NCBI RefSeq assembly: GCF_036588685.1
Contig: NC_086385.1
Coordinates: 23,211,216-23,275,215, forward strand
Origin: Mytilus trossulus
Lineage: Eukaryota
DNA: 64,000 bases
Direction of reading: 5' to 3'
The position numbers and the translations under genes are program-made. The notes under the pieces were generated by a model. It saw only the letters and a program-made list of their open reading frames with translations, did not search any database and was not told where the DNA came from. Positions 10,431 to 37,463 of this stretch are shown piece by piece (position 1 is the first letter of the stretch; every line of letters starts with the position of its first letter).

Positions 10431-10606
10431 AAGTCATGTGATTATATGTTTGAATTTGATTGGTCTACTTAACTTTGCGCCTAATTTTTCAATTTAAAAT
10501 CAAATCTGATTGGACCAGATTCTTTTCAAAGTCATGTGATTTATAAACTTTGAATTTGATTGGTTTGCTCATTTTTGCGCTTATATTCTTTCAATTTCAA
10601 ATCAAA
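10431..10606. promoter_or_regulatory. Putative bidirectional promoter between KolX and the Kolobok transposase
   Basis: The two ATGs (10391 and 10643) are head-to-head, 251 bp apart. A roughly 75-bp module is duplicated (10431 and 10529). ATTGG (CCAAT box) occurs at 10459, 10509 and 10559, with TTTGAA and TTTGCGC motifs nearby. Confidence 0.5.
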
Positions 10607-10642
10607 CACAGTATTTTGATCCTGTATACAACAAGTTTCAAG

Positions 10643-11768
10643 ATGGCTAGCAATATGAATATACTAAGTAATATTACAAATGTGGAGTATTTTAATAGAA
10701 AGAGACCTTCAAATGGAGAAGTGAAACCTAGAAAATCCATTGACTACAATTTTGACAATGACTCACAAAAGTTGGCATTTGATGAAAAATATGAAGGCCT
10801 AAAGAGGAAAATGGAAGTAAAATCTAATGTGGACATTTTGAACATTTTGATGGACTTTTACAATCAGAACTGTTCAACTCCAAAGCTTGAAGAAATACCA
10901 AATCCAAATGATAATAGTGAACAGGATGACCAAGACCTTTTTGTTTGCTCTAAACAGAAACTATTTGAACTTGTACGCCTAACACAGTGGTATGGTCCTC
11001 TTGAACCGGCCGAAATGACAAAAATTGGACATGTTGCAAGACTAGTTGTTAAACCAGTGAAAACAACATCTTTTCCGATTTTCTGGCATTCCTTATCCGC
11101 ACTGAAGCAGGACTTTACAGTGAATTACAAGTTGATACATTCTTATCTCTGTGCTGGGATGTTTCCTGCTCAATACGAACGGTTTAGTAGCTTTGCTAAC
11201 ATTGGACTTTCACAGAAACGATTTCGGGAAAAAATGTTTCCAACATTCAAACAGGTGGTAATATCGCTTCGGGACAAGAGCATTAATGATGCGTTAAAAG
11301 AGGAAAAAGAGAAAAACTCTTATAGTGATAATAAACTTGATATAATGACAGATGCAAGACATGCATGTAGAAAGAACAGTTATCATACTGATGTAACAGC
11401 TCTGGGGAACTTGACTCACAAAGTAGTAGGTTATAGTCACGTTACAAAGAACCAGGAAAGGAGTTCCCAGAAACATGAAACCTTTGGTACAGAAAAGCTT
11501 TACGAAGATTTCGAAAGAAAGAGGATTAAAGTGAAGTTCATTCGCATGATAGAAATGCATCTGTCAGTAAATATCTGAGCCAAAACCAACCAGATGTAAT
11601 TGATTCCTATGATACTTAGCATGGTGCAAAGGAGGTGCGGAGGAATATGGCAAAAATTACAGAGGGGACAAGGAAAAACATCGGAAAGACATGGCATCCT
11701 GAACTTAGAGACAAATCTGCCGGTGTTAAAACCCATGTTTACTGAGCAAAAGAATTGCAATGGTAATG
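10643..11768 (+). pseudogene. Kolobok-type DDE transposase, 5' part (interrupted by AcademH)
   Basis: ATG at 10643; motifs IMTDARH (first D), then after a frameshift near 11535 HDRN (second D) and YDT*H (DxWH with W to stop). A second W-to-stop and a frameshift near 11745-11750 follow. It ends KNCNGN at the TSD. Confidence 0.8.
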
Positions 11769-11846
11769 CAATCTCCGGCGCAGAGATCACATATCCGTTC
11801 CGTTCAATACTACGTAACACTACACTCAATATGACCTCTGCCATAC
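11769..11846 (+). repeat. AcademH left terminal inverted repeat
   Basis: The first 21 bp are the perfect reverse complement of 31621-31641; the match continues imperfectly to about 75 bp. Confidence 0.95.
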
Positions 11847-12155
11847 CTTTTTTTGCGTACTTTTTCTTCTCAATCTCTAAACAAAAATGAAATGCCTATG
11901 ATGACTTTTTTTATCAAAATTTAGCAATCAATCTTCAATTTTAAAAGAATAACAAAAGTTTTAATGAAATTTAATTAAAAAATTTATATTTATCAAATAA
12001 AAGCTGATTGTCGCACTTCTGTTATAGATTGTATTTCCTGTCAAATTATGTAAACAAAGTAGTCTGCAAAGGGATTATTTTTATTTCTGTAGCGATGTTT
12101 TTTATACATATTTCACTTTTTTTATGGATTTCTTCTTCAATTTAGATAATTTGAT

Positions 12156-15100
12156 ATGTCTTGCAATGCTTGTTATACCACAAATTCGTGGAGATTTCAT
12201 TCGTTGAAATCTGACCTTTTTTCTTTTTTCGACAAATTTACAAAGAATTTTGTATCAGTTTACATTCCAACTACCAAAAAACAAACATTGTGTAACTCCT
12301 GCTATTGTACGTTAAAGAAGTTGAAAGAGTGGAGTGAGAACATATACAGGTAACTCAAGTGCTTGAATTGTCTACATAATGAACATTTCCGTATACATGT
12401 ACACTAGTTATATTATACATAAATGTCTTTCATGAATTTGTAATCCATGACCATGTCTTATTAAATAATAATGATCTGGACCTCTGAAGTTAAAAGAAGT
12501 CTAATGAATAGCCCACAAAATTATTTTTTAATTTTTATCTAAAAAGCAAAATAAAAGGTGTAAAAAATATATATATAGTGCATGCAGTGGACCATGTTTG
12601 ACCAAGGAACTAGCCACTAAAGACTGTTATTTATCAGTAGCTATGCTATCTCTATTTAATATTGAACACAACATAGCTTGAGATAATTATTAATTATTCT
12701 TCAACTTGGTGTAACTGATATTCTTATAATCACATTCTTCGTAACATTGCAATTTTGCATGTTTGACAAACAGAACTTCTGATTTTCCTGACCAAAATTG
12801 AGTGGAGGTTTAAGTAAATTATATAGGTTAGCGATTTAGGCATTCCTAGCTATTTAAACAAGAACACAATTTTTTTTAAAGATTTAATTGTTTCTTCAAT
12901 TCTCTATGAAAAGATTGTGTAACTTATTGATGTTAATTTCTCCTTCCAGTTAAAATTGAAAGATACAAAAAATATTTATCATATGAATTACATGTACTTT
13001 ATCTGTTGATTTTCTTGTAGAACTGAGAGAATTAATACATTTAGTGATCATGCTGTGTTTCAGGAACAACATGTCAATCAATTGGTTACTGAAACAGGGT
13101 ATGTGTAGATAGTTGATGAATACGCATGAAATGTGGGGAAGGGTTCATGTCAACAATTCAGCTACCACTACACAAAAAAAAGACTTGAAAATACTAAAAT
13201 AAATATTATGAATATTAACAAACATTTATTGCACTTTTTGTACTTTTGACCTTTGTTTGATATTAGATAATTGGTCTCCATTGCCAATGATACACTAAGT
13301 GACATGATTGAAATCTTTTTGATTATTTAGCTGCTATTTAATATAAGACATAAATAAGACCTTTATTGATCTCAGTAGAATATTAAAGATAATATTATGT
13401 TGGGTAGCACTCAATGTAACAATATACAGTTGGACTATATAATTATTCAATTGTGAATATTGGTATATACTTATGTGCTTTCATCATGTTCATGTCATAT
13501 ACATTGCATAGTTCTAATTCTGATTTTAGAATTTCACCTGATCCACAGATAATTGATTGTTTAAGGAATGGTCACTTTGGTTCCATTGAGTAAGTAACTT
13601 ACCTTTATTATATATGTATACTGTGTGATTCATTAAATGCTAATTATTCATTTTATAAACATAGTACAGGTATAAGAGATTTTTTATTTAAATATTTCAA
13701 AATTTTAAAAGTTAAAACATTATAGGATATTTATTTAATTAAACCTTTTTGAATAATGAATGCACCTTTGCATTTTTTGTCATGTTTATTTCTAAGGCAT
13801 ATATATAGTGAAAGCTGTATAATGTATATATAATTACATATGCTATGGTTAAGATGGCTCTACTTACAAAATTCTACTTCGGCCAAATGAAAAAGTATGT
13901 GTGGTTCCAGTTACATCTGAAAAAAAGTTAGGGTAGGTAGTTAGGGATTTTTTTTTAATTTTATGGTTGTTTTTTTACATTGAGTCTATGGCATGTATGT
14001 GAGCAACATTCTGACTTTAATAGTGCTTAAAGAAAAATGACAATAAAATCTTTAGGGTAGGCTATTTTCAAGCCAAAAAAGTAGGGACGGTAGGGTTTCT
14101 GGAACCACACATATATTTTTATTTGGCCTTATAACAGGCTATAGTTTAAACTTGGAATAATTTTTAATAATGGCATTTGCATAATACAATGTGCATTTGA
14201 TTAATTTAGCTGTACAAATATATGTATCTAGTCAAGTGCTTGAAAATTTTGATAAATTCCATATTTATTTTGTACTATGATGTAAGAGAGTATTTTTCAA
14301 TAGAATGTACTGTGCCGCTCACAACAATATCTATACAAAATACAATGTATTAGAAGGGTTATGGACTGCTCAAAACAAATAAACAGAGAATTTATTCAAA
14401 AAGTAATACAATTATATTTGTTAGAAGTCTAGAACCTGGTCTATCACATACAGTTGGTCCAGCAGGGGATGCTGGCAGTATAGACAAATCAGAGTAAGTA
14501 ATTATCTGTAGGAACTTTAGAATAAGTGATGTCAACATATTTCATATTATATTAAAAGAAGATGTGGTATTATTGCCAATATGACATGTATGAGACAACT
14601 TTCCACAAGAGACAGATTGACACAAAAGAAATCACAGCTATACATGTAGGTCACTGTCAAGTCTTTAACAATGAGAAAAACTGTTATGGCATAGTCAGCT
14701 AAAAAAAGACAAAGTAATCACAAATGTAAACAATTCAATTGACAAAACTTATGGCCTAATCAAAGTGCAAAAAATAGATGAAAAACAATTATGGAGCACA
14801 GCAACAAACAGCCTCATTTAAATTACAGGATCTTGGCTTGGGACAGGAAAATTCAAACAGAATGTGGTTGGGTTGAAAATGTAACCAGGGACAGAGGTGT
14901 TACAGTACACAGTACATCATGAACATGACAAAAAAATATGGTCTACATGTCAATGAGATAGCTTCCGCCAATTAAAAAAATCATTTAGAAGCAATAGATC
15001 CATATCCTGTGACATACATAAATAACAAAGCTATTGAAACACCATTGTATATATGAATATGAACATGAATATAATATTATAGTTGATTGTTTAAAATGTA

Positions 15101-18100
15101 GTCTGAAAAGCAACCAACTTGCAAAAAAGTCCCAGGCACAAAGAATAATTGTAGGAAAAATGGAATTTTTATCATTTATGGGAATCTGAAGAAAAAAAAT
15201 ATCACCTATCATTTTGTACTTTTTTACATAATGTGAAATTACAATGAATTATGAGTATGCACATGTGGTTACATTCATATCAACAGTTTTATATAACTTT
15301 TTTCAGTATAAATGACACAGTTATTCCAGAGGAGGATTGCATACTATCATCAGGAGTAAAAAGATCTTTTACAGAGTATATATCATCTATATGTTTAGAT
15401 CACACTACAGCTCAGGTTGATTTTGCTTTGTCCACTCTTCCACAGTGTGAATTGGCACTGGGTGGGCAAATTCCAGCTTGTCCAGTCTGCCCACCAATAG
15501 GAGTGGGCATGTAATTTCTATTGATTAATCAAAAGACAATTTTTGCAAGTACAATCAATTGAAAAAAGCAGATAAGCATTTGTAAATAAGGAATATTAAA
15601 CAGTACTGTTATTAAAGAGTTGTCACCGTTAATTGTAGATTTGACGGTCACAAATGCAGTTTTATTGGCGACCGATATTTGCTGCCGTCAAATCAAAATT
15701 GATATTGGCAACTCTTCAACTACAGTACTGTTATTCTGGTTCTAATACATTTAAAAAATAAGATATGTAACAAGTTGAAAAAATGTATAAATTTGACATA
15801 CACAAAAAGTCAGCGAAACTTCATGAATATTTATGACCTATAAATGTCATTGATAAACGTGACGTCAAAGACTGTACATAATTTAAACTAGATCATTCAT
15901 GAGTTTGAATAAAGTTTATGCTTTCATAACTTTTAAATGCTTAGTATCTTGAAAATTTGATATGCAATAGTACTTCTATTTTTCAACATATATATCCTCA
16001 ACTCTCATACAAAATCTTGAAGACTTAAGTCAATGTCTATGAAATATCTTTTACTACCATTAAATGTTTATTTTTACAGTGACCATTCATATATCAACCA
16101 CAAAGGGCACAATACAAGTGATTCAAATGACCATGAATATTCCTGTAACTTGCACACAGAGGAGGATGAAGAAGATGATGAAGACGTCAATATTTTATGT
16201 CAGGATAGAATAAAACAAATATTAAAACTACTCAATTTAAAGAGTAATGCTGCATATGACTACCCAAGCATGTTAAGGACTTGTAGTCAGACAGATCTTA
16301 GCGAAAAAGACATCTTCATGAGCATTATTGAAGAAATGAAAACACGGTATTATTAACATCACTTCTAAAAATGATTTTTGATATGAAATATGGAGATTTT
16401 GCATGATTTTCAATGAAACTACTATATTGGTAGAGATAATTTGACTAAGATACAAACTACCTTCAACAATGAGCATAATCTTTACCTTTTAGCAAATGAA
16501 ATAAAATTTTTTATTAAAATACCAACAGTCTAATACATACATGACATACAACATCAATGATTCAAAATCACATGTGGCAGAAAAACAAAACAAATTTCAA
16601 TTGATTTATTCAGACAGATAGTTATAGAATTTTTAACATAAATATCTGCAAGAATAAATACTTCTTTGTAAGACATTATGCATTTAAACGTTATTTTCTT
16701 AAATAATGATTTCAAAAATTATTGTTCTTTTATCATGTTTGTCTCTGAATATTGAGGATGAAGATTGAATCATTATCTTTCTAGACCTGAAATCTATTTT
16801 GTGTACATACATTACCATTTAGAATACTACTTATTCAAATATTGAAATTCTTTGAACTTATATTTATTAATACATTTGTACTTAAATATTTAATATGAAT
16901 TCACTTGTATATTTGAATACCAATAGATGTCCACAACTGCTTGAAATACTGTTATCAGTATGTGTGAAGGATACGACAAAAGTTAATTTAAGGCAAATTA
17001 ACAGTGTTGCTGTTGCATATTCATCTCTAATGTTTGCTAGAAACAACAAAAACTCTGGTATACAAAGATGTATTACCCTGTTAGCTGTTAAAGGAGATGC
17101 AAATGATGAGGTACGAAAAAATCATGGTAATGTAATACAATATAGTTTGTATAAATGTCATATAACATACATTTTCTTCAGCAGGAGACCCAGTGATGAT
17201 TATTTAATGATAGGGGCTGATGTTATTGATGGAGTTTGGTTATTAAAGGTGGCACTTTGAAAATACAGCTGTTTCTCAAACCACACTTCTTTTGGGGAGA
17301 TCTAAAATATTCATAAAAAAATAATTGTGTTTACATACTGGTTCCCAGTTCTGATCTGTATGTTGCATCTAACAGAGACATATCTTGGGAATGTTACCAG
17401 TAAATATACATGTGCATATTGTTTATATTGAAATCTGTGGTAACCCTTCATTTGAGATACGGGGTAGCTAAGAAAATAAGTTTTACTTTAAAATCTGAGA
17501 AGTTCAAGGCATATAAACGTTGAAAATATGCCGCATACCGCTGTATTTCGACCTTTGAGATTAATTGAAGTGCATATGAACTTTAAATTCTTCGATAAGA
17601 TTTTTTTCAAAACTTCATAGTAAAAGTGTTACAGTTTTAGCCGCAAAAGGAGTTCCAACGGAAAATGCATTCTCAATATTTACAAAAATGCAACCTAAAT
17701 CTCAGTAAATTGAACAGCTTATGACTGGAATTGTACTCTATACCTAGATATTCTTAGATTTTATGATTTTTTACTGTTATGCCACTTGTTTTGCTCCCTC
17801 AATGCTAATTCATCTGTAACTATTACTGCTTATTGCCTAATCTTTCCCTTTTTGCTGTGTCTCAAAATATAAAATCTGTTTCTATATTCTATCACTAATG
17901 AAAGCAATGAATACAAATAGATTTTATGTTTTCCTTTAGGGCTGTTCCAAAAATAAATGTATGAGGGCACTTTTTATTTGACCCCACAATGCATGAATTT
18001 TTATTTGAAAATTTCCTTTAAATGGTAAAGTTATTAAACACTACCCATCAAATTGTATTTAAAGTGCCTTATGACCCCCATACAATTAATTCTGGAACAA

Positions 18101-21100
18101 CCCTTATTGTATACTGTAAATTCAGACATTGAACTGACTTATCCCATGAAAAAACAAATATGTGTCTAATTAGATTAATTATTGGAATTTCTATACAAGT
18201 TGATAATTATAGATATATGTACAGGATATAAGAAAACTAGTTATTTTTCTTTGATATATGGTTACCAAGTTGCATAAATCATAATCATTTCTGAATTTAC
18301 AGTATACTTTTGCTTCCCATTTAGGTTACAGCTTTACTTTCCTTTCACATTAACAAAATACATTATATGAAAGTCTGTATAAAATGGTAAATACACCTGC
18401 TGTATGTTGGTTCGAATCCAACTGCAGACAAAGCAATGTATCTTAGTATAGCTAGCTATTAACACTTAAACTGTGAAATCATTCTTATAAGCATTTTGGT
18501 ACTTTGGTAATATGAAAAATGTTATTCAATATAACATTTTCAAAATTCTTTTCCTATGATTCCATTTTAAAAAAAATGAATTCAATGAAAAATTACCTTT
18601 TATTATAAATTTACAATATTTCTGATTATCTGATTTTCAACTATTACTAATAAGGACAAATACATTTATTATTGATAAGAATGACTTCACAGTGCTTACT
18701 GCTATTTTTGGTGAAGGTGCATTATTAACTAGTTACAAATACATTAGTAATAATTGATAATGACAGCACTATTTCATACATGTTTTATTTTTAATTCTAT
18801 TTCATAGTTTATCAGAAGATTGAACAGGATGTCGTTAAGCCTTTCCTGTTCTGGAAAATTAAGAATTCTTGATAAGGCTGTACTTGCGTCACATAATATG
18901 CTGGTTGAAGCAATTCGTACAAACCCTTTAATGAAAATTACTGGGGATAACTTGGATATGTATATCAGAACAAACCACCAAAGGACAGACAATAGCAACC
19001 AGGATATACACTGGTTTGCCTCTAATGCATTTTTCACCAGACTTAATTACCAAAATCTTCCTGAAAACACACCAGAAGTTAGTCCAGTTTCTGTTGCTAA
19101 TTTTGTTAGCATGGTTCACTTGTTCTTAAATTAAGAATTTCTTTTTGAATTTGTTGAAAGCTGGAAGTATTATTTCTCATGGATTGTTATCTGATTATTG
19201 CTTTACATAGGCAGTAACTGTTTTAGTTTCCTTATCCAGCAATTAATTTAAAAAAAGAAAAATTCTATCCAAATCAATAATTATTTTTTTATGTAATCAT
19301 GACTTAAATTTAATCGGATACTGTGCTTTACAATATTATTCCTTTATTATAATCTATTGATTGATTAACAATTTACAAACAGTTAAGAAATGTAATTTTT
19401 TTATTCATACAAATTATCAGTCTGGAAATTAGGAAAATTAGTGTAATTGTAAGGTAGCATGCATTTATATATGTTTTACATTTTTTTACAACTTTAACTC
19501 ATAATTATTATTTTACACAACATGTTATTGAAGCCATTTTTGATGAGTTCTGTTTTTCACACTGATGTTTTCTTACAGGTGACATGTTCCAATTAGTGTT
19601 TGAGTCTTGTGATCATTATGTTCTTTTTTCTATTTAATGGGTTATCATATTTAAAAATTTGATTATTAAATTGTACTATTAAAGTGCAATTGAAAATATA
19701 TTTCAAGATTATAGTATATGGTGTAGGTGTAGTCCAGTTGATCTTGTCAATTTCAAGATGATTTTTTTACATTTTGGCTGTTCATGAATTATGGTACTAG
19801 ATGATTGGAAAATTGAATTCATTTGAAATTTTTATATTTTTCTTTCCCAGACTACCTTCAAACATTGTGCAAGTATAAATATCAATAAACTATGACTTTT
19901 TTTATAGGTTAGACTGAAAGACATAGATGCAGAAATGTTTGTATTAACTGGAGGGGAAACAATGAAGCTGAATGATGTAAAGAAGGTTTTGATAGGTCGT
20001 CTTCTATGTGACAGGGATGACTTTCAGTGGCTTAAAAATAAACTACCACAACATATACCACATCGGTACAACTTTAAATCTTAATATATGGGAAAAAAAA
20101 TTACAACTGTCCTCAATGGAATGGGTCTGAGTAGTACAAATGTGATTTCATTTTATGTTGTGAATTTATTTTGAACATATTTTTACATATTTTTCAGCAA
20201 ATCAAATGACTTTTGTTGTCCAGATAAATTTGGGATATAAATAAAATAAAATAAAGGATATGGTTAACTGACTTTACAGTATAAACTTTGCTCATGGTTG
20301 AAGGCTGACAGTGACCTTCATCTGAATATCTGTGTCAATTCATCTTTGGTGGACAGTTATCTCATTGGCCATCATCATACCACTTCTTCTTCAATTTTAT
20401 AAAAATAAGTTGCGACATATATAAAAACGAGAATCAAGTGATGAGAACTTATTTTGATCAGATTGCATCTTCTTTCATATAATGACACAAAACTGGTGTA
20501 TAACAAAACACAAAATGCAGTAGAATAAGGTTTTAATTGCTATTCTTCATTTCAAAATTAGTGATGACTTCAACATGAAGCAAATACTATCACCTAACTA
20601 CATCTATAATATCATATGGCTCCTAGCACTAGTTTGATTGGCTTTTATAAACATATTACATAAAAGAATTAAAGAAGTAACAGAAATATCATATCAATAT
20701 AGTACCTTATATTATATCGTAATACATGTATTTCATTTGGCATTTTTTAATTTTAAGATACAGTGACAGCATGTCAAAGAAACAGCATGTCTATACATTG
20801 AAAATAATGTTCAAGAATGAATCTAAAAATGAAGACTGTCTGGATATAATGGGCGAATACGAAGATCAAATAATTGATTTGCACACAAAGGCATATGGTA
20901 ATAAAGGCATTACAATGAAACCTGGCTAAACCAAATCCTACCTAAAACCGAAGACCTGTATAAACCAAAATTGTTCTGAAGCACGGTCATATCAAATTGT
21001 ATGCTTTCTTAATTCCTGTGGAGGTTCCTTTTTAAATAGGTTTCATTGTAGTATACCTTGCACACTGTTTATTACAGTTTTTCATATCTGATTTGGATTT

Positions 21101-24100
21101 CAGTATCCTTTCTATTATCATTTGCACTTTCACTTTCTTTCTTATATAAAAAAAAATGTTGCATTTGTTCATGATAGCCATCAAAATTCAATTGAAATTT
21201 AAAATGTTTTAATATTTTTAATATTCCTATTACAGGAAATACAGACAATTTAGATAAATATGGAGTAGTTTTAGGAGGAGATATGTTGACCAGGGAAAGA
21301 TTACAAAATGCTAAAAACATCACATATTTAGCTCCAACACCAAGGGGTAGATTTGAACATTTAGCCCCAGTCACTTGTGAACTTTGGCATGTGAAGCAAG
21401 ATCTTCTATCTGTATGTTTTATTGTATTCATACCTAGTCCCTTAAGCAATTTTGATATCACCAAGCATTCTGAGTGCAAGGACCATAACTCTCAACAAAT
21501 TTGTAACTTTATCTGTTACTTGTCATCATAAATCAAGATACCAAATTTCAAATCAATATCTTCAAGCTGTAAGAAAAATTGTGGAAAAACTTATTTGACC
21601 AAATGCAAAACTAAAGTCCATTTAAACTTTATGCTCATTTTGTTTCTTAAATTATGCACTGTACTGGCATCAATTTTCAAGTCTATTTTTTTTTATTTCA
21701 CCTAAGCGCATACCTAATATTGTATTAAAAGGATTTTAAAAAACAGAATTGAAGTTATTTTAACATTGTCTTTATGTCAATTTTTTAGAAAGCATATAAA
21801 GCCTTATATAAAATTGATTCATTGGGAGAGTGTGGAACTTTGTTTCACATGAAGACAGCATTAAGGAGGAATGATGTGAATGGAAATGTAAAGTCCAACT
21901 ACAAAGCCCATGAGGAACTATTTCTGCTGATTGTGAAAGCATTAATTCACGTAGCCTCAGATGAGATAAGGGATTGCAAAGAACAGAACAGAGACGTTGT
22001 CCTTAGTAATGTTTTTTCAAAAATTTATGGTTTGTATAAAATAATGATTTCCATATAATTATTTCATTGGTACGATAGCAAAACATGCAAAAGTTATTAG
22101 CATAAAGGGACAACCCGTGGTAAAATCTAGATATATTCAAGCCCCCATGAATTATTTCGATTCTAATAGGACAAATACGGCTACTTTTTTGGATCGAAGC
22201 GCCCTAGGTGGAGGCCATTATTTGCCGTTCCCATAAATTCACGCACTTTTAGATTGGCGTAAAAGAACGGAGCAAACAGAATAAGTGACATGCTCAAACT
22301 ATTCACAAAACTTATAAAGATAGATTTCGATGAATTTTAATGATAACTTACTTAAATATGCCTTCTATGTATAAAAAAAATGGGCTTATACCACATTTTT
22401 GCATCGTTTGTTTACGTTTCCTTGTTGTGATGATTTTCGGTATCAAAAGCGTGTATTTTCCCGTAAAATGCTTAAATTATAACGTCATCATTCTATGACG
22501 TCGGGTACTTCATTCATTAAAAAAACATATGACGTGGGAGTACGATCGGAACAGCCAATGCAATATATTCATATTTTACCACGGGTATGTACTCAAAGCG
22601 TTTGAAGGACGTCATGTTAGAATACTTTACATTTATGTTCATGGAATGTAAAGATTTCAAATTCTACCTGGTAAGAATTCTACTGACTGTGACAGAACCA
22701 TGAAATCAAGTATTACACATTCTCGGAAAATTGATTCCCAAGAAAAAAAGTTGAGTCTACACTATTTAGAATAACAAATTTAAAAATAAAAAACTGGAGG
22801 CTTTCCTATATAGATATAGGAAGATGTGGTGTGAGTGCCAATGAGACAACTCTCCATCCAAATAACAATTTAAAAAGTAAACCATTATAGGTTAAAGTAC
22901 GGCCTTCAACACGGAGCCTTGGCTCACACCGAACAAAAAGCTAAAAAGGGCCCCAAAATTACTAGTGTAAAACCATTCAAACGGGAAAACCAACGGTCTA
23001 ATCTATATAAACAAAATGAGAAACGAGAAACACGTATATATTACATAAACAAACAACAACTACTGTACATCAGATTCCTGACTTAGGACAGGTGCAAAAT
23101 GTACACCTAATGACCAAGCTAAATAAATTGTAGGAATGACCTGGCAGATATACATAATATATGAAAACCTATTGGTTACCTTCTGCTGTTGTCTGTTCTA
23201 TGGTAGGGTTGATGTCTCTTTTACACATTCCCAATTTTCATTCTCAATTTTATATGAAGAAGATGAATGGTTACAATTTATAAAACTGTTTGTGGATGCA
23301 AATGAATATAAACAGTTATTTTTTAGGTCTAGGATACAGCACAGATGATTACATTTACAACTACTTCACAAATTTAATAACCTGGGGTATTCAAATAATT
23401 AACATGAATGACACAGCAAAGGAAGGGGACATGGAGAGACTTATAATGAATATGAAGGAAAATGCAGCCTTTTTTTTACAGCCACTCAGTAATGAGCAAA
23501 TATTTTTCTGAGTGCGTTAACACCATCTTACAAGTACAGCACCTATCATCCCCTCATATGAAAATGAGACAGCTAGAAGGGGCATTCATTAATACCAAAG
23601 GAGGTTCTGGTAAAAACAAAGAAGCAGACCTGGTGCAGGAGCATGCCATTAGAAATCAGAAGGACTTAATAAGAGGTTTAGGTAAGAAACATAGACTTAG
23701 CCTCCAATCACCCAAGTATTGTTACTGTAATTGTACTTCTGTATAAAAGTTTCCTGTTGGAATTATCTCCCTTATACCATTGACCTAACTTAAAAAAGGA
23801 GTTGCTTCATATTCTTAATTAATTTATTATTTTTAAACAGTTTCAAATTTAATATCTAAATATATGGGATCCATATTGTCTTAATGATTGAATTTGTATA
23901 TAACTATTTGTAACAACACACAATCAGGATAAATTTGTAAGGTGGGGTGATGTGAACCTGATAATTTTTCGCTACATTGAAGACCTGTTGGTGACCTTCT
24001 GCTGTTGTTTTTTTATTTGGTTGGGTTGTTGTCATTCCCCATTTCCATTCTCAATTTTATCATATTATACAATTGCACACTATGAATCTAATATTGCTTA

Positions 24101-24592
24101 CGGCCAATTAAATCTATTAAAAAGGGCTAATATATTACTTTCATTACTGTACTAAACAGTAAGATATTGGGAGTAATACATTCAGACAAAAGCTTGAACA
24201 GTTTCATAATATAAAGAAAACATCAGTCACATCTGTATTACTTATTGATCTTAAAGTTGAATATAATTTTTATTAATGTAGGAGCAAATAAAACTGAAAA
24301 TGGTTCCAGGAGAGCTAGCAGCTCAGCAGACATCATCCATCGAATAGGAGACAATGTAGACCATCTTCTTGGTATACCTAAATTCACATCAAGCCATGCC
24401 AAGAAAACGTCATCTAAAGATCTGGAAATTGCTATAAACATTTTAAGTAAAGTTCAGCCATTTAAATATGTTAAGGGTAGGAAATTTGAAAGTTTTAAAA
24501 CAATACAAAAAAATCCAAAACTAATTGTTCAAAGGAAAGATCTAATACATGCCATCCATAAAAAAATTCAGAGGTTATTTTTAAATTCATAA
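12156..24592 (+). CDS. Academ (DUF6589-like) DDE transposase, 14 exons, about 907 aa; one +1 frameshift in a T8 run
   Basis: Phase-consistent GT-AG exons: 12156-12349, 13021-13098, 13512-13589, 14425-14493, 15307-15510, 16080-16346, 16927-17110, 18808-19077, 19908-20065, 20758-20897, 21236-21411, 21789-22029, 23327-23681, 24282-24592. Motifs: N-terminal CxxC..CxxC, ITGDNLD, GGDMLTRER, ELWH, KEGD, SKY, NTKGGSGKNKEADLVQEH, LGANKT. One extra T at 23470-23477. Exons 2-5 are less certain. Confidence 0.82.
13881..14128. mobile_element. MITE in transposase intron 3
   Basis: Imperfect TIRs of about 28 bp: GGCCAAATGAAAAAGTATGTGTGGTTCC and GGAACCACACATATATTTTTATTTGGCC. Confidence 0.7.
17936..18106. 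mobile_element. MITE in transposase intron 7
   Basis: Imperfect TIRs of about 30 bp: TAGGGCTGTTCCAAAAATAAATGTATGAGGG and CCCCCATACAATTAATTCTGGAACAACCCTTA. Confidence 0.65.
18373..18430 (+). ncRNA. tRNA-like structure, copy 1 (58 nt), transposase intron 7
   Basis: Acceptor-like stem GTCTGTA/TGCAGAC, a stemless D-like loop containing TGGTA, a 5-bp arm ATACA/TGTAT with a 5-nt loop, and a T-arm GTTGG-TTCGAAT-CCAAC. Confidence 0.6.
22807..23100. repeat. Abundant SINE-like interspersed repeat
   Basis: ATAGATATAGGAAGATGTGGTGTGAGTGCCAATGAGACAACTCTCC...ACTAGTGTAAAACCATTCAAACGGGAAAA is nearly identical to 34271-34453. Related copies lie near 14555, 42335 and 55790. Confidence 0.75.
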
Positions 24593-24959
24593 TTTTTTCT
24601 ATAGTGTGTTTATAGTTTCATAGAAAATCAGGTGCCTATATCTACTGAACTTTGTGTTTCTATTAAAAAAAAAATTAGAATAACTTATTTACTGAATGTC
24701 AATAGCATATAAGTCATAACCATTAATTTTTCAATGCATGTAAATTTCTCTCCACTAATATTGAAAATGAAATGAAGGTAAAAGCAATTTTCAGTTAATT
24801 TTACTTACACATTACAATAATTTAATGTTATTTTTGAAACTAGATATATGCCGAAACAGTGGTCTAAAATACCAATAAACATTATGTAAATGTTACTGAT
24901 GATTATACTGGTGCTATTTTTACCTTAAAATCAATCATTACTATAAAATATTGGGGATT

Positions 24960-25830
24960 GAAGAAACAACTTCATTGTTGTTTTATAGATTTTAAAAGTG
25001 TTTTTGACAACTTGAATACATTTTTTTTATATCATAAACTTGCTAAATGTGGTATTAGTGTAAGTTTTTTTCCATTATTAAATCTTTCTATGATATTTCA
25101 ATGACCTGTGGGAAATTTAAAGGTGAATTTTCTAATATATTTTCTGTAGAAAAAAGAGTATTACAAGGGGAATCATTATCAACCATACTATTTTTTTTTT
25201 TTTTATGATTTTGAATATTAGTTTATTTTATAGCTTATTTCTGTTTTACCAGTAGACACGAAATAGCTGTCATTGTTTATATTGATGTTTGTTATATTTT
25301 CTGAGAGTATTGATGGGTTGTAAAATATGTTGAGTATTCATAATGTATCAGATAGAAAAATAAAAAAAAATCAGTTAGAATTTTGTAAATATATTTATAC
25401 TATTAAGAAATCCCCTGCTACAGCAATGGTTTATTCTGAGTTGGAAAGATTTCCTTTACTTATATGTTAATCAGTAAAAATATCCAAATATTGGATTTGT
25501 CTATTACGAGTCTGAATCAGGAAATATGTCATCATGGGTTACTAATGTTAAACCTATGTTGCTTAGCCAAGGTTTTGGGCATGTATGGTATGCACAGAAT
25601 TTTGAATGCGAAGAAGCATTTTTTATTCAAACTAAGGTTTATTGACCAAAAGGGAAATATGCTTTTCGATTCATCATCAAAATGAACGATCTATAAATAT
25701 GAAGTGGATAACTGTTTAACTGACATTTTTTTCACAAATAAGTTAAGTCCACAATGTATCAGATTTTTAACTAAATATAGTCATTTCCTAAGGGGAGGTA
25801 AATTAGTTCCCAATGTTTTGTATCAATTAG
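24960..25830 (+). pseudogene. Highly degraded LINE (RT) remnant between the AcademH genes
   Basis: 25156-25192 reads RVLQGESLSTILF (RT motif QGxxLSPxLF); a later segment reads AMVYSELERFPL. Many stops and deletions. Boundaries are approximate. Confidence 0.5.
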
Positions 25831-27420
25831 AATTGACATTCTAAAAAAGTTGAGTGTAAATTCTTCTTCAATAGATCAGGAATGGCTAATATCTGCATTG
25901 TTAATAAAATTATAGTGAGCTATGTTTATAATTTATTATTATTATTTAATGTGTCTCTCCATGTCCCTTTCTTGTGTAATTTTAATCTGTACGGTGTGAA
26001 CCATATTCTTTCATTGAGGCCTTTTTTGTAAAAGAAATACCTAATTTTGATCCCTGCATGTAATATAGTTCAAAAATATATAAAATTGTTATTTCCTATA
26101 AATCTACCTACAGTTTATTATTTTAATGCTATTATGTGTTTATGCATTTGTTGTTCAAGATTCATTGATTGTAATAACAAATGAAATTTTAAAATTTATT
26201 CAAATGTTGGTCTGCTATATTTATCAGTCTATTATTATTCTATTATTTACACTTTGAGAAAAGCGCAAAAAGAATTGGAAGGCAAGAAGATGAAAAAAAA
26301 GATGAATTGATAGAAAAAGATTTTTTTTAGAAAAAAAATATGTAATATATATATTTAAATATTTTAACAGTGACTTACGTTGAATCGCATTTACACTAAA
26401 AAAAATATTGTGATTGCCTTCATTTAATGGTTTAAAGCAACTACATCTCATATAAAAAAAATTGGAATGGAAAAATACATCCTTGATAATTGTTATATGT
26501 TAATATATAATTCTTTCAGTGAAAGAAAAGATTTACATTGACTGTGATATTTTTATTCATTATTGATTATGAAATAAACTGTGATATAAACTGTGATATT
26601 GACTTGTAATGTATGTTTAATGAACAAAAAAAGAAATCCTCCCAGAATATTTTTAGTCATCAAATCTGGGTTTCTTTTTATTTGTAATTATATGAATTAT
26701 ATAAGTGAAAATTTTTGATTAAATCAAATGTATAGTCTTAAAAATTAATTTGAATGACTTCTTCTGAAAAGGGATCATATTAGAAGTTGAAATGAAGGTA
26801 TAAGTATGTTATTACAAGTTGAAGCAAACTGTAATCTTTTTTTTAATCAGAAGTTTTGAGAAACATTAGTTTGTGCCAAGGATTATTAAATTGATTTTTG
26901 CTATGATTTATTGTTCATTACTATTTTTAAAATGATGCATGAAATTATTTCTTTGGGTGCAGATGAACTGTTATGAAAACCTTTTTTAGGGTAGCAAAAG
27001 GGTTTTAAGATTAAAATTACTTAAACTAGAACAATAAAGTAATATTAATGTATTGAAATGAAAACCAAAATGTTATCATTGGATTTTTATTTCACTCAAA
27101 CTAGTATGTCTTGTATACATAAATAGATTATTTATAAGCTATTAAACCTGTGCACTGAATGGTTAAAGCATAACTATCTCCAAGAAATGAACTTTTATCA
27201 TTATTTATTTGATATTTAAAAAAAAAAAAAATTTGAAATCAATTGTAGGTTTTGAATACATTGTCTCCTAATATTATGATTAAATGCTGTACTTATATGC
27301 TTTTTGTATTACTTGAAAATAGAATAAAATTTGTATATGAAAAACGATTTTTTATTTCTATTCCAAAGTTTTGAAATTAGGATTGGGATGGGGGTTGAAG
27401 TTTGAAGGGTTATTGCCTAT

Positions 27421-30400
27421 TTACAATTCCATTCTCAACATCTCACATTCAATACAGGAACATATTGGTTTACAGTTGTTACAGCAGATATGACCCTTTA
27501 CATCTGTTTTTTCAAAGCCATACTGCTGTAGTAGGTATTCTCGAATGCAACCCTTTTCCCTACAAAAACCAATAATATCAGGCTTGATATCAACTACATT
27601 AGCAGCAATATCCCTATTGCTGTAATAAAGAACAGCATTGGCTGCATTCCCTGAACGACCAGCACGCCCAATCTCTTGGACATAATCTGACAGTGATCTT
27701 GGTGGACGTGCATGGATGACTCTCATAATTGATTGAGAATTAAACCCCATACCCACAACTGAGGTGCAAAACACAAGTTTTATCCTTGGGTTTACACAAG
27801 CCAACTCTTTAATTATATAATTTTTTACACTGTCATCCTGACCACTGCAGAGAACACCGTATACAGATGTTTCAAGGGTAGGTTTCTTGAATATATGTTT
27901 GCAGTAGGCAGCTGCATTGCCTATATACTGTAATGGCATAAATAACAAAGTAACTGGAAAAGTTTCCCTATTTTCAAACAAACTGTCACAAAGTGGCCTA
28001 TATATATTTTCATAGGACTCATAAATATCTAGGGATGCCTCTTTAAGTTTGATTTCCAGTAAAATGTTTTCCCTATCAGGACTTTCCTTAATAACTTTTG
28101 GATTTTTTATCCCTAAAGAACTAGTAACCGCCTTCTCTTCTTGTTTCGTGACAGTGGCACTAAGTCCCAATCTGGGTACTCCTGGAAAAAATCCTGGAAG
28201 CTCTTTCAGGTGTTCAAAAGCTTTCCTGAAGGATCTCCCCCTATTCATAAAAAAAGAAGTAATGATCATGCATTTTGATAATAACCATTTAATAAATAAA
28301 GTTAAATACACCACCACCAAATAAAAGGGATATAAGCAATATGAAATCATTTTTCCCAATAAAACTCTGATTTTATTAAATATGGTGTTAAAATTTGTGT
28401 TCTGTATTTGTTACAATTTTTGTTATCTACATGAAATAAATTTGAAAGAAAACCAATGAATCTAATAATCCAAGAATGAATAATATGATATTATTCATTC
28501 TTGGATTATTATTAATATCTATTATATTTCAAAAACAATACAGGTCACAGATAATTGGAAAAAATGCATTCACAGTGGAATGTTAATAGCTGAAATAATA
28601 TACATTGTTTGTCCGCAGTTGGAATTGAACCAACATACAGCAAAGTGTATTACCCTATAGATACAGACTTCTTTATAATGTATGTTGTTAGTAAGGGTGA
28701 GATAAAATGTAAATAAAAAATTAAGATAAAAGCATTAATTACTAAATGTTAACAAAAAGCTTTAAAAAACCACATTAAAAGCTTATACTAGCTGCATTAT
28801 AGAAGTTGACAGTGGATGAAAACAGGAAATTTAACCAGAAGCTAAAACATGTAAAATGCAGATATGCACTGAAAATAAATTAATAAAAAATAGGTCACCC
28901 AAGATCAATTTTACTTATTGTTAAGTTAAAAAAATGTCTTGCTACATGTTGCAGATAAATTCCATTAGGCCAACTGTAAGGAGTTTTGCTAGAAGTAATA
29001 AATATACAAAAAACATATACATTACTGGTAAGTCTTAACATTAGAAATGGAAATACATACCTTGCTTTCTCTTTTATACTTACATTATCTGTTTAAAACA
29101 TTTCAAACAGTATCAGTAAAATCTGATTCATGTCAAAATGTGAACTTTAAATCAATGGTAATATAAAAAAACAAAAACAACAAAATATTATTGAGGTTAT
29201 ATAAGTAATATTGATTTTTAAAATTGAAAAAAAAAAATGCCAGATCTTGAGAACAAGTTACAAATTTGATAAGAAAGGTGATAAGCCAGACTTTACTTTC
29301 AAAGAAATGACCAATGCTTGATAAAATATATAAACTATGTTAATCATTGACCAATATACAGGGTAACACACAACCAGGACAAAAGCTTAAAGAATTACGT
29401 TTAAATTGTTTTATAAAGTGTAATAGATGTCCATTAATGTCACCTAAAAAGTATGGAATGTTACCAGTATTTATTTATATATTCAATACATTTTGCTATT
29501 GTCCAGCAGAAAAAAGTTGTCAAACTGAATCTGAAATTAAAATACAACTAGAGCTGAAACGTACCAATCTGCAACTTTATGACATTCGTCAATAAAAATT
29601 GCCTTCACTGAAGATTTGAAACTACAAGAAATATAAAGTAAGAAAAACATGGAATTTTACTATTGACTGTTTTGGCCACTTGAATGTATTTTAAATGCAC
29701 ACATAACGTTGTTCTAAATTCATATTAAGATCAAAATTCTCAGTTCCATTATCATTATTTGTTGGCAAAATTTAACACGAATTTTCTGTAAATGGTTTTC
29801 AGAAAAAAAATGTGAAAAACTAAACTCTAAGGGATTGCTTAATTTTAACCAGACTGCAAAACCAACATTCCATTTTTATAGCATTATTGCTTTAAAGAAC
29901 AATTTAACATGGGAAAGAAGTGATGCATAAGTCAAAAATCTTTTTTTTTTAATTTCTTGATTATTTTTTCTATATATAATTAATACATGCATATAAATAG
30001 TTTAATACCTAGAGGAATCCAAGATATCATTTCCTTCTGAAGTACAGAAGAAGGCTTCTGGATGAGCAAATATTAAGTTACAATTGGATATATCTGAAGT
30101 ATCTATATCACACTTAAGATCTTGGATATTTTCCTCATTCCCTGCAGTCAACAGTCTTCCCTGTGGAATAAAGGAGCACAGTTAAACTATGTAAAACTAC
30201 CTACCAAGAATTATTAGATACTGAAACAGAAGAAATTAAATACATGTGTAGCCATCAATCAAGAATCATGATTTATGAATCTAGATTTTATCAAATTCAT
30301 GCCCCATTCAATGAATCAGAAACTACTTCTTGACGAAACCAAATACTTTTGAACATATGATACATGTACATGTAACTACAAGATTTAGAACAACCTTATA

Positions 30401-31485
30401 TATATATATGCATGTATATGTATAACCTGCAGTTGACAACTTGAAATATTAAGTACAGTATTTGAGTAAAAAAAAAAATTAACAGGTGAGCCATGCATAA
30501 GCATGTAACTGGTACCAGATTAACATGAATATCTCAAAGTCTTCAAATATCAGTTAACTTTAATTTGGTATGTTAGTAAAACTGTTTCGTCCCGGCCAAG
30601 GGTACTCATCAGGTGCCTTAAGGCTACCACTACAGTCATCTGTTACATATACATTTTTTTTAACTAATTATAAGAACAAATGGTATTAGTTAGTGATCAT
30701 CTCTTTGCACTCATATTCTGAAATATTTCACTTAAGAGATCTTTTAGACCTTAAAAAAAATATTTGAGGTGTTCATAAGGGTCTGTGGAGTTCAAAAAGT
30801 GGGGTGTTATAGACGTTTCTTTTCTGTTATCTGTAGATATTTGGACTCTTAGTCTTCTAATTTGTTGAATTAATAATTGGAATATTATAAATAAGTACCA
30901 ATTTAAACGATAAAAGTCAAAATAATAAACTTTTTTGGTGTTCGGTGGTGTGCGGTGGTGAAAAGACCTACCGGTTTATTTTGGCACCTTCTGCAGGAAA
31001 GAAAAAACTGGAAAGCAAAATCTAGTAAAGTTTTTAAAATTTCTGAAACGTTTACTTTAAAATAACTTTTATATATCTGCCATGCCTTAAAACTTTCCTA
31101 GATGTACCAGTTTCTCTACTCAAATAGTAAATTTTTAGGGGTAAACACGGCCATATTTTTAAATTCCTTATGATGAACCTGAAGAATAAGAGTAGATTTT
31201 TACCCTGGTATTTAATATACAACATTTCAGTGCTTCTGAGTTCTTCAACTGTTTTACTTGCTCTTCTTGGATGACACTGAGAGGTGAAAAAACAATCACA
31301 GTGCCGTCCAAGATTAGCGGAGCCAGTTGGTATATGAGGCTCTTTCCATAACCAGTTGGCAAAATCGCTACTGTTTCAAGTGTTCCTTTTCTGATTTCGT
31401 CCAACACTTCAATTTGTTTAGGTTTCAGTAGTATGTTAGGATGACCAAGTCCAAGACGTCTAAGCGGGATTTCGTAATCCGCCAT
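27421..31485 (-). CDS. RecQ-like SF2 helicase of AcademH, 4 exons, 436 aa, intact
   Basis: Exons 31485-31204, 30160-30009, 29621-29565 and 28240-27421 splice in frame (1311 nt). Motifs: LPTGYGKS, SPLSVI, AHPE, FIDECH, WGRSFR, LSAT, CTSVVGMG, YVQEIGRAGR, and a C-terminal CIR...CCNNC Zn-binding segment. Confidence 0.92.
28463..28511. repeat. Perfect 24-bp inverted repeat with 1-nt spacer
   Basis: TAATAATCCAAGAATGAATAATAT-G-ATATTATTCATTCTTGGATTATTA. Confidence 0.95.
28610..28668 (-). ncRNA. tRNA-like structure, copy 2 (59 nt), helicase intron 3
   Basis: The minus strand reads GTCTGTA TCTATAGGGTA ATACA CTTTGC TGTAT GTTGG TTCAATT CCAAC TGCGGAC A. The stems match copy 1; differences fall in loops or give a G-U pair. 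Confidence 0.6.
30581..30636 (-). ncRNA. Type III hammerhead ribozyme in helicase intron 1
   Basis: The minus strand reads ACTGT-A GTGGTAGCCTTAAGGCAC CTGATGA GTACCC-TTGGCC-GGGAC GAA-ACAGT. It has a complete CUGANGA/GAAA core, a GUA cleavage triplet, closed stems I and II, and an open stem III (ACUGU/ACAGU). Confidence 0.8.
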
Positions 31486-31566
31486 TTTTTACAAATAGCC
31501 CTTTCACCGCCTTAGATACTTCCGCTTGTCCGCCATGAGGAAATTTCCTCATGGAGTCAGCCAATC

Positions 31567-31641
31567 GTATGGCAGAGGTCATATTAAGTGTAGTATTGCG
31601 GAGCACGTAAGGAACGGATATGATCTCTGCGCCGGAGATTG
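31567..31641 (-). repeat. AcademH right terminal inverted repeat
   Basis: Reverse complement of the left TIR, followed directly by the TSD ATGGTAATG. Confidence 0.95.
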
Positions 31642-32222
31642 ATGGTAATGCTGCTCAACTAGTGCTCTTGCTTGACTCCATTGTGGACCATTACAAACAA
31701 GACCATAGAAACTGTCATCAAACATCTAGATACAAAAAAAATGACTATGTGCCGTCGCGAGATATTATTCGGGATCCAACAGCCGAGTTGTTGCTAAGGA
31801 ACAGTATAAAAAACCTTTATATTTATAAGCATCCAGAAAAGTATACTCATTGTCGTGACACTCATTATATTGAGAGTTATCATAATACAATTCTCATACA
31901 TGTGGATAAAAGGTTACATTATCATAATTTAATGTATGAAATTAAGTTGGGACTATCAATACTTGATTGGAATGAACATGTTGATAGACCTGCTTCATCA
32001 GTACAACACCGTGTGCAACATGACCATCCACGTCGACAATCTGGATATCGGGTTTTGACACCAAAACAATATACTTTTACAGATGAATTATGGAATAACT
32101 TTGTAAATCTGTTAAATCATGACCGCAATGACCAAATTGAGCCCGATGATGTTGAAAATGTTCAAATAGACCAAAATGATACAATTGGTAGTGAATATGA
32201 AGATTCAGATGATGATGAGTAA
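31642..32222 (+). pseudogene. Kolobok-type DDE transposase, 3' part
   Basis: Continues the 5' part in frame once AcademH is removed: GNAAQLVLLLDSIVDHY..DH..CH...RDTHYIESYH (catalytic E)...DKRLHY...LSILDWNEHVDR, ending in an acidic tail. Confidence 0.8.
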
Positions 32223-33798: not shown

Positions 33799-34144
33799 GG
33801 TGGAGATTTATTTCCCCGAGGGTATCACAAGCCAAGTAGTCAGCAATTTTTGTGCTGACATGAATTGTCATTAATATGGTTATATTTATCAATTTAATTT
33901 ACTGTTTACAAATTTTTGAATTTTTTGAAATACTAAGGCTTTTCTACCTCAGGCATAGATAACCTTAGCTGTATTTGGCAAAACTTTTAGGAATTTTGGT
34001 CCTCAATGCTCTTCAACTTAAAGTTCGTACTTTATTTGGCATTTTGAACTTTTTGGGATTCGAGCGTCACTGATGAGTCTTTTGTAGACGAAACGCGCGT
34101 CTGGCGTATATACTAAATTAAGTCCTGGTATCTATGATGAGTTT
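33799..34144 (+). repeat. About 350-bp dispersed repeat carrying a minimal type I hammerhead (retrozyme-like)
   Basis: Homologous copies at about 43205-43540, 47600-47735 and 58064-58270. Degenerate inverted copies near 41380-41680, 49495-49660 and 54690-54965. Confidence 0.85.
34065..34106 (+). ncRNA. Minimal type I hammerhead ribozyme (intact core)
   Basis: CGTCA CTGATGA GTCT-TTTGT-AGAC GAAAC GCGC GTC TGGCG, with a palindromic short stem III and a GUC cleavage site at 34101. Confidence 0.85.
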
Positions 34145-34958
34145 AATTAGTAAAGGCATTTTTTTATGTAAAAAATGGTGAATTAAATCTGGTATTTAGC
34201 TAATTTTACCACTGTAAATAAGAAGCTATAACAGACGCATACACGAAGATCAGAAGGATTTTGTGGCATTAATAGATATAGGAAGATGTGGTGTGAGTGC
34301 CAACGAGACAACTCTCCATCCAAATAACAATTTTAAAAAAGTAAACCATTATAGGTCAATGTACGGCCTTCAACACGGAGCCTTGGCTCACACCGAACAA
34401 CAAACTATAAAGGGCCCCCAAATTACTAGTGTAAAACCATTCAAACGGGAAAATTTTCTAAAGGGAACTGTGACTGAACAATTTTGTTTGATTTTAACAA
34501 TTATTGAAAATCCTTCCAATCAATAAATTCGTTGTATATTACGTATATCCTTAATACGTGCTAACAGTTTGTGTCTTGGGTTAAGTTTTTTTTAGTTGAG
34601 ACTGGCTTTGAAAAAGAGGGAAGTAACTGCAAGTATTCTTAAATAAATATTCGTGTTTTGTGCTTTTGACATTTTACTTATTTATACAGAGTTCGTACTT
34701 ATATTAATTAATCAATACATCACTTGTATTTAAATTTCATATCATGATTGTTTTGTTTATTTGTTAATTGATACATTAGGTTAATAAAATACATCATGCA
34801 CATAGCTTTAAATTTTTTTTTTTTTTTCATTTTTTCAGTAATGAATTTTCAATTTTATTAGATTACACATTACTGTAGGTGTTTCTATTATATATTTGTG
34901 ACTGTCCTTTCGTTGTACACTGATTTGTTTTTGATTCATTTAAATAATATATATATTG

Positions 34959-37024: not shown

Positions 37025-37463
37025 TATATATATATTGGGTTGATGTTTAGACGAGTTGTATATATATTATTACACAGCCATGTATCACCATCATGGCGAT
37101 CCGATGGATACATCTGTTGTAGAGTTGTCACTGACTCCGACGTACTTATAAATATAATTATTTTCTGTGACTGTATATTACATTAATTTGTAGGATCCTT
37201 TACTATAGATAATTTAGCTGATCTGTAACAATAACATCTTCATGCCTTATATATCATGTACTGTAGTACGCCGCTAGATTAAAACTGACGAGGAAAGGTA
37301 ACACACGGCCAGCGGAAGCTCTTTTTTTTAGTCTAAATATTTGCACATCGGTACTGATATAAGATGTTATAATACGAAAATGTTGTTATCAAATCGTGTT
37401 GACAAATATTTCGGCTCAACAAATGGCCTTCTTCAAGTGTCACAAGTTTTAACAATACTGATA
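36889..37463. repeat. About 136-bp inverted repeat (Penelope pLTR-like end duplicated in inverted orientation)
   Basis: 36889-37024 is the near-perfect reverse complement of 37328-37463, with a spacer of about 300 bp. It includes a hammerhead-like variant CTTGAAGA-AGGC...GCC-GAAA. Confidence 0.85.

Follow-up and report, generated by a model that had tools for sequence, protein, structure and literature searches.

Candidate intron-cutting RNA cassettes in an AcademH transposon and other DNA transposons of the mussel Mytilus trossulus

The genome of Mytilus trossulus harbors an AcademH transposon whose two genes carry three structured motifs in their introns, a type III hammerhead ribozyme and two tRNA-like folds. 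The element lies in a stretch of 64,000 nucleotides (nt) of contig NC_086385.1 (GCF_036588685.1, positions 23,211,216 to 23,275,215 of the forward strand), which is referred to as the window and in whose numbering coordinates are given. Sequences, positions, strand and conservation of the motifs were compared within this one genome of 1.3 Gb, and the motifs are shared between different kinds of transposon. We propose, with a probability of about 0.45, that they represent two kinds of portable intron-cutting cassette whose predicted cut races splicing and limits transposon mRNA. The original prediction had described one hammerhead and two tRNA mimics in introns of this element, all sense to their host gene, and the three motifs indeed exist at these places and in this orientation:

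30636-30581, minus strand: type III hammerhead, in helicase intron 1, sense to the gene
30612-30606 and 30588-30585, minus strand: hammerhead core, with GUA triplet
18373-18430, plus strand: tRNA-like fold 1, in transposase intron 17111-18807; predicted RNase P cut before 18373
18358-18364 with 18435-18441, plus strand: outer helix of cassette 1, enclosing the tRNA-like fold
18350..18354, plus strand: branch-site-like YUAAC of cassette 1; A at 18353, 20 nt before G+1
28668-28610, minus strand: tRNA-like fold 2, in helicase intron 3; predicted RNase P cut before 28668
28683-28677 with 28606-28600, minus strand: outer helix of cassette 2
28687..28691, minus strand: branch-site-like CUAAC of cassette 2; A at 28688, 20 nt before G+1

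To compare conservation of the motifs with that of the genes, a sister family (L079+L080) was used, in which all three motifs were present in the same three introns. Five in-frame exons (a set that leaves out exons Tb and Td) were 71-78% identical between the two families and matched at 67 of 147 four-fold sites, whereas the motifs matched at 49/57, 53/58 and 50/56 positions (86-91%), a conservation exceeding that of the coding exons. Of helicase intron 1 (1,043 nt in the window, 1,156 nt in the sister) only the hammerhead could be aligned, and in the other two introns the cassette was the main aligned block, accompanied by short extra blocks of 24-64 nt. Selection on the motifs as RNA structures is very probable. 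Behind the outer helix of both tRNA-like cassettes lies another conserved block of about 40 nt (18445-18500, plus strand; 28595-28560, minus strand), present in the window family and its sister but not in distant families.

The hammerhead combines a CUGANGA and GAAA core with an NUH triplet and three stems, of which stem III is open (type III topology), and its predicted cut falls between 30631 and 30630. Core and triplet are intact in the window copy and in 20 of 28 genomic hammerhead matches. Across 13 sequences, 94.6% of the cells in the pair count were paired; three pairs between loop I and loop II were formed in 97.4% of cells, without covariation, while the length of loop I varies freely from 8 to about 48 nt.

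The two tRNA-like motifs of the window are homologous to each other (91% identity over 35 nt, 78% over 137 nt). Each comprises an acceptor of 7 base pairs (bp), a GG-containing linker of 11 nt that lacks a D stem, a short-looped 5-bp stem and a T arm. In a pair count of 15 sequences, 95.8% of cells were paired and 8 cells showed two-sided changes, a number reached in 0 of 500 shuffles; the shuffle controls for both motifs are inflated by the relatedness of the sequences, and one tRNA-like count was made on a model-fitted alignment and is treated as biased. The outer helix of 6-7 bp pairs leader with trailer, its first pair being A-U, G-C or G-U depending on the family, and its sequence differs in distant families. 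In one blind-picked family, the corresponding transposase intron holds a diverged copy with the fold preserved and a different outer helix. In all 10 representatives G+1 is the G of an AG, and in 8 of them the A of a YUAAC or YUAAY lies 20-22 nt before it, compared with 1,587 of 69,016 background AGs; the tRNA-like DNA common to different hosts starts at YUAAC. This spacing is the geometry of a branch site and a 3' splice site, here overlying the predicted RNase P site. Binding of a STAR-family protein and a structural role are alternatives for the YUAAC element.

None of the three motifs was detected in the window by Rfam or ARAGORN, a sister copy of the tRNA-like motif gave a weak RF00005 match of 24 bits, under the cut-off, and the folding z-scores of the three window motifs were modest (-2.7, -2.0 and -0.8). 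The tRNA-like motif showed no full cloverleaf (ARAGORN 0) and no common body, tail or target duplications of the type found in short interspersed elements (SINEs), and the DNA common to different hosts stops at the motif edges, so that it qualifies neither as a tRNA gene nor as a tRNA-derived SINE.

Exact pattern scans were run genome-wide for both motifs with reversed patterns as control. Two hammerhead patterns gave 22 and 27 matches and the tRNA-like pattern gave 52, with 0 matches for the reversed patterns in each case, and the motifs are therefore not due to chance. A looser tRNA-like pattern gave 179 matches (100 of them listed) against 48 in the control. In genomic DNA searches, in which 40 of 53 tRNA-like candidates and 28 of 28 hammerhead candidates were scored, matches to both motifs were nearly all confined to the motif itself. 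Pattern matches at C5:36.46M and C11:50.35M (open frame, no 5' arm), C10:50.80M (5' arm not intact), and C1:81.2M and C2:101.2M (no fold) were set aside, as was a core-like string at L197 that has no hammerhead fold. Many tRNA-like matches come from a single non-autonomous family, about 5 kb long and with AcademH ends. At C8:2.019-2.024M (L090/L091) and about 20 similar loci, the cassette of this element often occurs twice with a period of 202 bp; its tRNA-like core is intact, while YUAAC and the outer helix have decayed.

Both motifs recur in further AcademH families. The hammerhead was found in transposase introns of two distant families (L063, L071), and the tRNA-like cassette in helicase intron 1 (L082), in the intron after the DExH exon (L185/L186) and in the same transposase intron as in the window (L169). 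These five families carry one motif each, in different introns, and the first helicase intron holds a hammerhead in the window family and a tRNA-like cassette in L082.

The original prediction had viewed the motifs as a system of two-gene AcademH elements, which proved too narrow, as the same cassettes occur in three other kinds of transposon. A hammerhead lies about 830 nt upstream of the start codon of an ISL2EU-like transposase (DDE_Tnp_4 with YqaJ, L067), another in a coding intron of a second DDE_Tnp_4 transposase (L089), and a third, with damaged stem I, between exons of a Mutator/Kolobok-like element (L077). The hammerheads at L089:5009-5111 and L077:9902-10000 have a common 40-nt AT-rich insert in loop I and are identical at 82 of 94 positions, while nothing outside the ribozyme is alike; judged by this likeness, the hammerhead appears to have moved laterally. 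One intact hammerhead (L069:9917-9978, plus strand) has no transposon gene within 10 kb and lies 1.2 kb downstream of a host-like cysteine-rich exon on the same strand; it is possibly a copy in a host intron.

The fourth kind of transposon carries convergent KDZ-like and Ulp1-like genes (C1:98.875-98.918M; L189-L192, L205). Its KDZ-like gene (minus strand) was assigned by Atlas (0.93-0.94, PF18758 in 18-53% of members) and has no direct Pfam match, and its Ulp1-like exon (plus strand) matched PF02902 with an E value of 0.004, below the cut-off. It contains 22 tRNA-like copies, 13 sense to the KDZ-like and 9 sense to the Ulp1-like gene, some of which lie between mapped exons; the ends of this element were not found. 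Similar tRNA-like clusters are present on C1, C3, C4 and C9. ISL2EU, Kolobok and Zisupton are the names that we take to belong to these domain sets.

Between hosts, common DNA ends at the motif edges. When orthologous introns were counted once, the cassettes were sense in all 11 distinct contexts with a host gene (p about 0.001, assuming independence), in agreement with the predicted strand bias and as would be expected of motifs that act on the RNA, and every oriented cassette in two-gene elements also points inward from the nearer element end.

Presence of the motifs varies among AcademH elements. On a tree of 18 transposases it needs 3-4 changes, a number as low being obtained in 37 of 500 shuffles, and the cassettes are optional and patchy in this group. 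A blind sample of 12 AcademH stretches of 20 kb was taken from 103 PF20231 matches, avoiding known motif-bearing places; two stretches are near-identical, and element ends may fall outside the stretches. Rfam searches of 21 of the 24 blind halves gave the common type I hammerhead only and no other ribozyme class. Type I hammerhead repeats also lie just upstream of an AcademH transposase exon and, unlike the type III motif, antisense to it (L203:6722-6765, minus strand, with another core near 7150). On environmental and viral contigs without AcademH genes (L108, L149 and others), type III hammerheads of the same stem I and III scaffold made up most of the matches, besides a few chance matches, in a survey comprising 50 loci from a metagenome scan and 11 from a viral scan, with 60 loci examined overall. 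AcademH genes were in none of the 60 environmental loci, and two tRNA-like patterns matched 0 viral contigs. The scaffold likeness is partly built into the search pattern and was not used as evidence of origin.

From these observations we infer RNA cutting, the enzymes involved, a role as splice site and a lowered mRNA level. The cassettes would cut the pre-mRNA while it is being made, and transposase or helicase mRNA would arise only from transcripts spliced early enough. For the hammerhead this would be self-cleavage; in the tRNA-like fold, by analogy with MALAT1/NEAT1, host RNase P would cleave before G+1 and RNase Z behind the discriminator. With YUAAC placed 20 nt before the G of the AG, the tRNA-like cassette may in addition engage the spliceosome as a rival 3' splice site, and in either order, splicing or cutting, the transcript would end after the N-terminal exons. 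Each gene bears its own cassette, and the cassettes would act independently of each other. A race between cutting and splicing is favored because predicted RNA cutting is the one property common to the two unrelated cassettes, which occupy similar places. DNA transposons have no RNA intermediate, and conserved cutters in their introns therefore point to regulation. A precedent is the intronic ribozyme of CPEB3, whose cut competes with splicing and lowers protein, and blocking of which raises CPEB3 protein (PMC10274809).

Four sequencing runs were surveyed for RNA, considering the best rows only, which are dominated by common repeats; the two runs that provided contigs are only guessed to be RNA. 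In one contig the transposase exons 21235-21411, 21789-22028 and 23326-23573 are joined. In two runs, contigs depart from the genome sequence at the donor of helicase exon 1, with 28 and 19 letters left unplaced. The rows considered show no joints or ends at the motifs. On this basis the element family is transcribed and spliced at a low level, and splicing persists despite the cassettes, both at the donor of the hammerhead intron and between the downstream transposase exons.

Several observations weigh against the proposed race. Read ends were not piled up at the predicted cuts, at a depth of about 1 or less outside repeats that is too shallow to map ends, and a cut intron need not lower mRNA. 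Sense and inward orientation are confounded in these elements. In the blind sample the tRNA-like motif was found in 1 of 12 stretches and the hammerhead in 0 of 12, and in the KDZ element arrays of at least 12 tRNA-like copies exceed the need of one cut. YUAAC is missing from 2 of the 10 representatives and no pyrimidine tract lies between YUAAC and AG; moreover, the representatives are homologous, so that their count indicates constraint and not independent origins. Stem I of the window hammerhead contains a G-G mismatch (30616) that is absent from the others of 13 aligned variants, and this copy may be slower than its sisters. It also fell below the Rfam reporting level (unlisted at E<=1), while sister hammerheads scored 32.9 and 34.9 bits against RF00008 with its gathering cut-off of 48.5. 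Two-sided covariation of the hammerhead was weak (17 of 500 shuffles as high).

A more far-reaching form of the proposal can be advanced only tentatively. Here at least four cut-and-paste kinds (AcademH, ISL2EU-like, Mutator/Kolobok-like and KDZ/Ulp1) would trade two interchangeable intron-cutting cassettes, the tRNA-like one fusing a branch site and AG to an RNase P substrate, and splicing and tRNA processing would compete for one guanosine, switching between full-length and truncated mRNA.

The cassettes could instead clear unspliced or read-in transcripts, among them host transcription that runs into the element from either end, and thereby avoid feeding silencing or double-stranded RNA between convergent genes; spliced mRNA would escape. 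The inward orientation of cassettes in two-gene elements and the spliced products seen across or beyond the hammerhead donor agree with such a function, and its direct benefit to the transposon would fit long-term retention; it leaves the branch-site-like element unexplained, and we regard it as unlikely. Rather improbable is the release of a stable RNA of about 58 nt from the tRNA-like cassette, with the outer helix holding the intron halves together so that splicing continues. That helix pairs leader with trailer and covaries, the cassette has been tandemly multiplied in three lineages (units of 202, about 210 and 150-310 bp), and such processing yields a stable RNA in the case of mascRNA (PMC12941219). 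However, the hammerhead, which yields no small product, is not covered, and the same elements bear other tandem repeats, so that the arrays may be neutral.

That the motifs are parasitic or neutral passengers, i.e. remnants of small retrozyme- or SINE-like units, mobile at the RNA level, that came to lie in transposon introns, is improbable. The long-loop hammerhead common to an ISL2EU-like and a Mutator/Kolobok-like element, the patchy distribution among AcademH transposases and tandem units within the retrozyme size range (PMC7229834) would fit this origin. On the other hand, the motifs were kept in orthologous introns while four-fold sites came near saturation, no common target duplication, tail or body outside the motif was found, all-sense orientation is unexpected for neutral cutters, and among 10 hammerhead flank groups only L069 is without a link to a transposon or transposon intron.

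The original prediction had further suggested that the hammerhead and the putative RNase P site in intron 3, which do flank helicase exons 2-3 with the DECH motif, release a defined 1,962-nt RNA (30630-28669). This layout is correct and is retained in the sister family, three genomic copies included. In other related AcademH elements the motifs recur as single cassettes, which lie in different introns and genes; the pair in one gene, and with it the bracket, is confined to the window family and its sister. The released piece would lack a cap and start exon and would contain two partial introns, and we consider this reading highly improbable. Equally so is a role of the tRNA-like motif at the DNA level, as a B-box TFIIIC site shielding the element genes or as a polymerase III unit: the T loop fits what we take to be the B-box consensus in all variants, but covariation of acceptor and outer helix and the strand bias point to RNA, there is neither a clear A box nor a T run after the motif, and the hammerhead is not covered.

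The element and its genes were delimited as follows:

11769..31641: AcademH element, 19,873 bp, with imperfect terminal inverted repeats
11760..11768 (left copy) and 31642..31650 (right copy): target-site duplication, 9 bp
16081..24592, plus strand: transposase (DUF6589), mapped exons only, 5' exons unmapped
17111..18807, plus strand: transposase intron holding tRNA-like cassette 1
27421..31485, minus strand: RecQ-like helicase with four exons (31485-31204, 30160-30009, 29621-29565 with DECH, 28240-27421)

The two genes are convergent and both multi-exon. Transposase exons matched PF20231 (DUF6589) with E values of 6e-11 and 7e-7. The window copy has a frameshift near 23470, where a T run is longer by one T, and an RNA contig has a gap in this exon. 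The helicase exons, modeled from the homologue P0003 and splice sites, total 437 codons, match DEAD and Helicase_C and are 98% identical to a Mytilus galloprovincialis protein; a 19-nt micro-exon candidate near 30972-30990 was rejected, as it contains an in-frame stop and P0003 joins exon 1 to exon 2. A helicase and a target duplication of 9 or 10 bp are the hallmark of AcademH (PMC10045372), and the window element has the DUF6589 transposase, the RecQ-like helicase and terminal inverted repeats with a 9-bp duplication. It is inserted inside a Mutator/Kolobok-like transposase frame (10547-11578 and 31611-32222, plus strand; weak PF20700 match), upstream of which a cysteine-rich frame lies on the opposite strand (9616-10182, minus strand). 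Elsewhere in the window, type I hammerheads of a common mussel repeat, unrelated to the type III motif, were found at 34064-34107 and 47656-47699 (plus strand; Rfam 32.5 and 33.6 bits). Reverse-transcriptase-like frames at 34862-36653 (plus strand) end in a GIY-YIG-like part, as judged by eye, and appear Penelope-like; behind them lies a 136-nt inverted repeat at 36889-37463. A direct duplication (51475-53200 and 61527-63200, spacing 10,052 nt), 100% identical in the 300-nt blocks listed, is either a recent duplication or an assembly artefact.

Compared with known systems, intronic cutters as a kind are familiar, while the tRNA-like cassette is an undescribed structured RNA. The vertebrate intronic ribozymes (CPEB3 and the RECK and C10orf118 hammerheads; PMC10274809, PMC3088659) are likewise conserved, sense and intronic, but they are single host-gene loci, whereas the type III hammerhead described here is a predicted cutter common to several kinds of DNA transposon. 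In core, topology and a possible 3-bp loop-loop pairing it is like the known type III hammerheads in which loop I and loop II form a pseudoknot (RF00008; PMC3088659). Animal hammerheads are mostly type I (PMC7229834), whereas those of the mussel transposons are type III. Non-LTR retrozymes, known from animals including Mytilus (PMC7229834), likewise place small cleavage motifs in the mussel genome. Their hammerheads are type I and number thousands of dispersed copies, arranged in tandem units of 150-450 bp each with a hammerhead; in contrast, the hammerheads found here are type III, single per locus, present in tens of copies and located in DNA transposons, and retrozyme-like tandem units (150-310 bp) occur only for the tRNA-like cassette.

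MALAT1 mascRNA and NEAT1 also show a reduced tRNA-like fold with a strongly conserved T arm in a polymerase II transcript (PMC12941219). The tRNA-like cassette has the acceptor, T arm and T-loop consensus of this module, and differs in lying in coding-gene introns of invertebrate transposons and not at the 3' end of a long non-coding RNA. Its layout resembles what we take to be that of mascRNA, with no D stem and a short second stem. Where MALAT1/NEAT1 has an upstream triple helix, the cassette bears the outer helix and the branch-site-like element, and no conserved U-rich/A-rich arrangement was seen by eye in a 12-copy alignment.

Neither motif is reported from introns of DNA transposons, and no RNA motif from AcademH elements, in the literature searched, which excluded most subscription journals as well as Repbase entries and the 2020 AcademH paper; a mention in the latter two is possible. 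Ribozymes in mobile elements have been described from retroelements, which need RNA cuts to move. If the proposed race between cutting and splicing is true, cut-and-paste transposons would control their own genes in a manner so far unreported. The cassettes would also offer a compact system for testing intronic ribozyme function, with natural controls in families with and without a cassette, intact and decayed copies, and two chemistries at comparable sites. With the tRNA-like cassette, the RNase P-type processing of polymerase II transcripts that is known from vertebrate MALAT1/NEAT1 would be extended to the introns of pre-mRNA.

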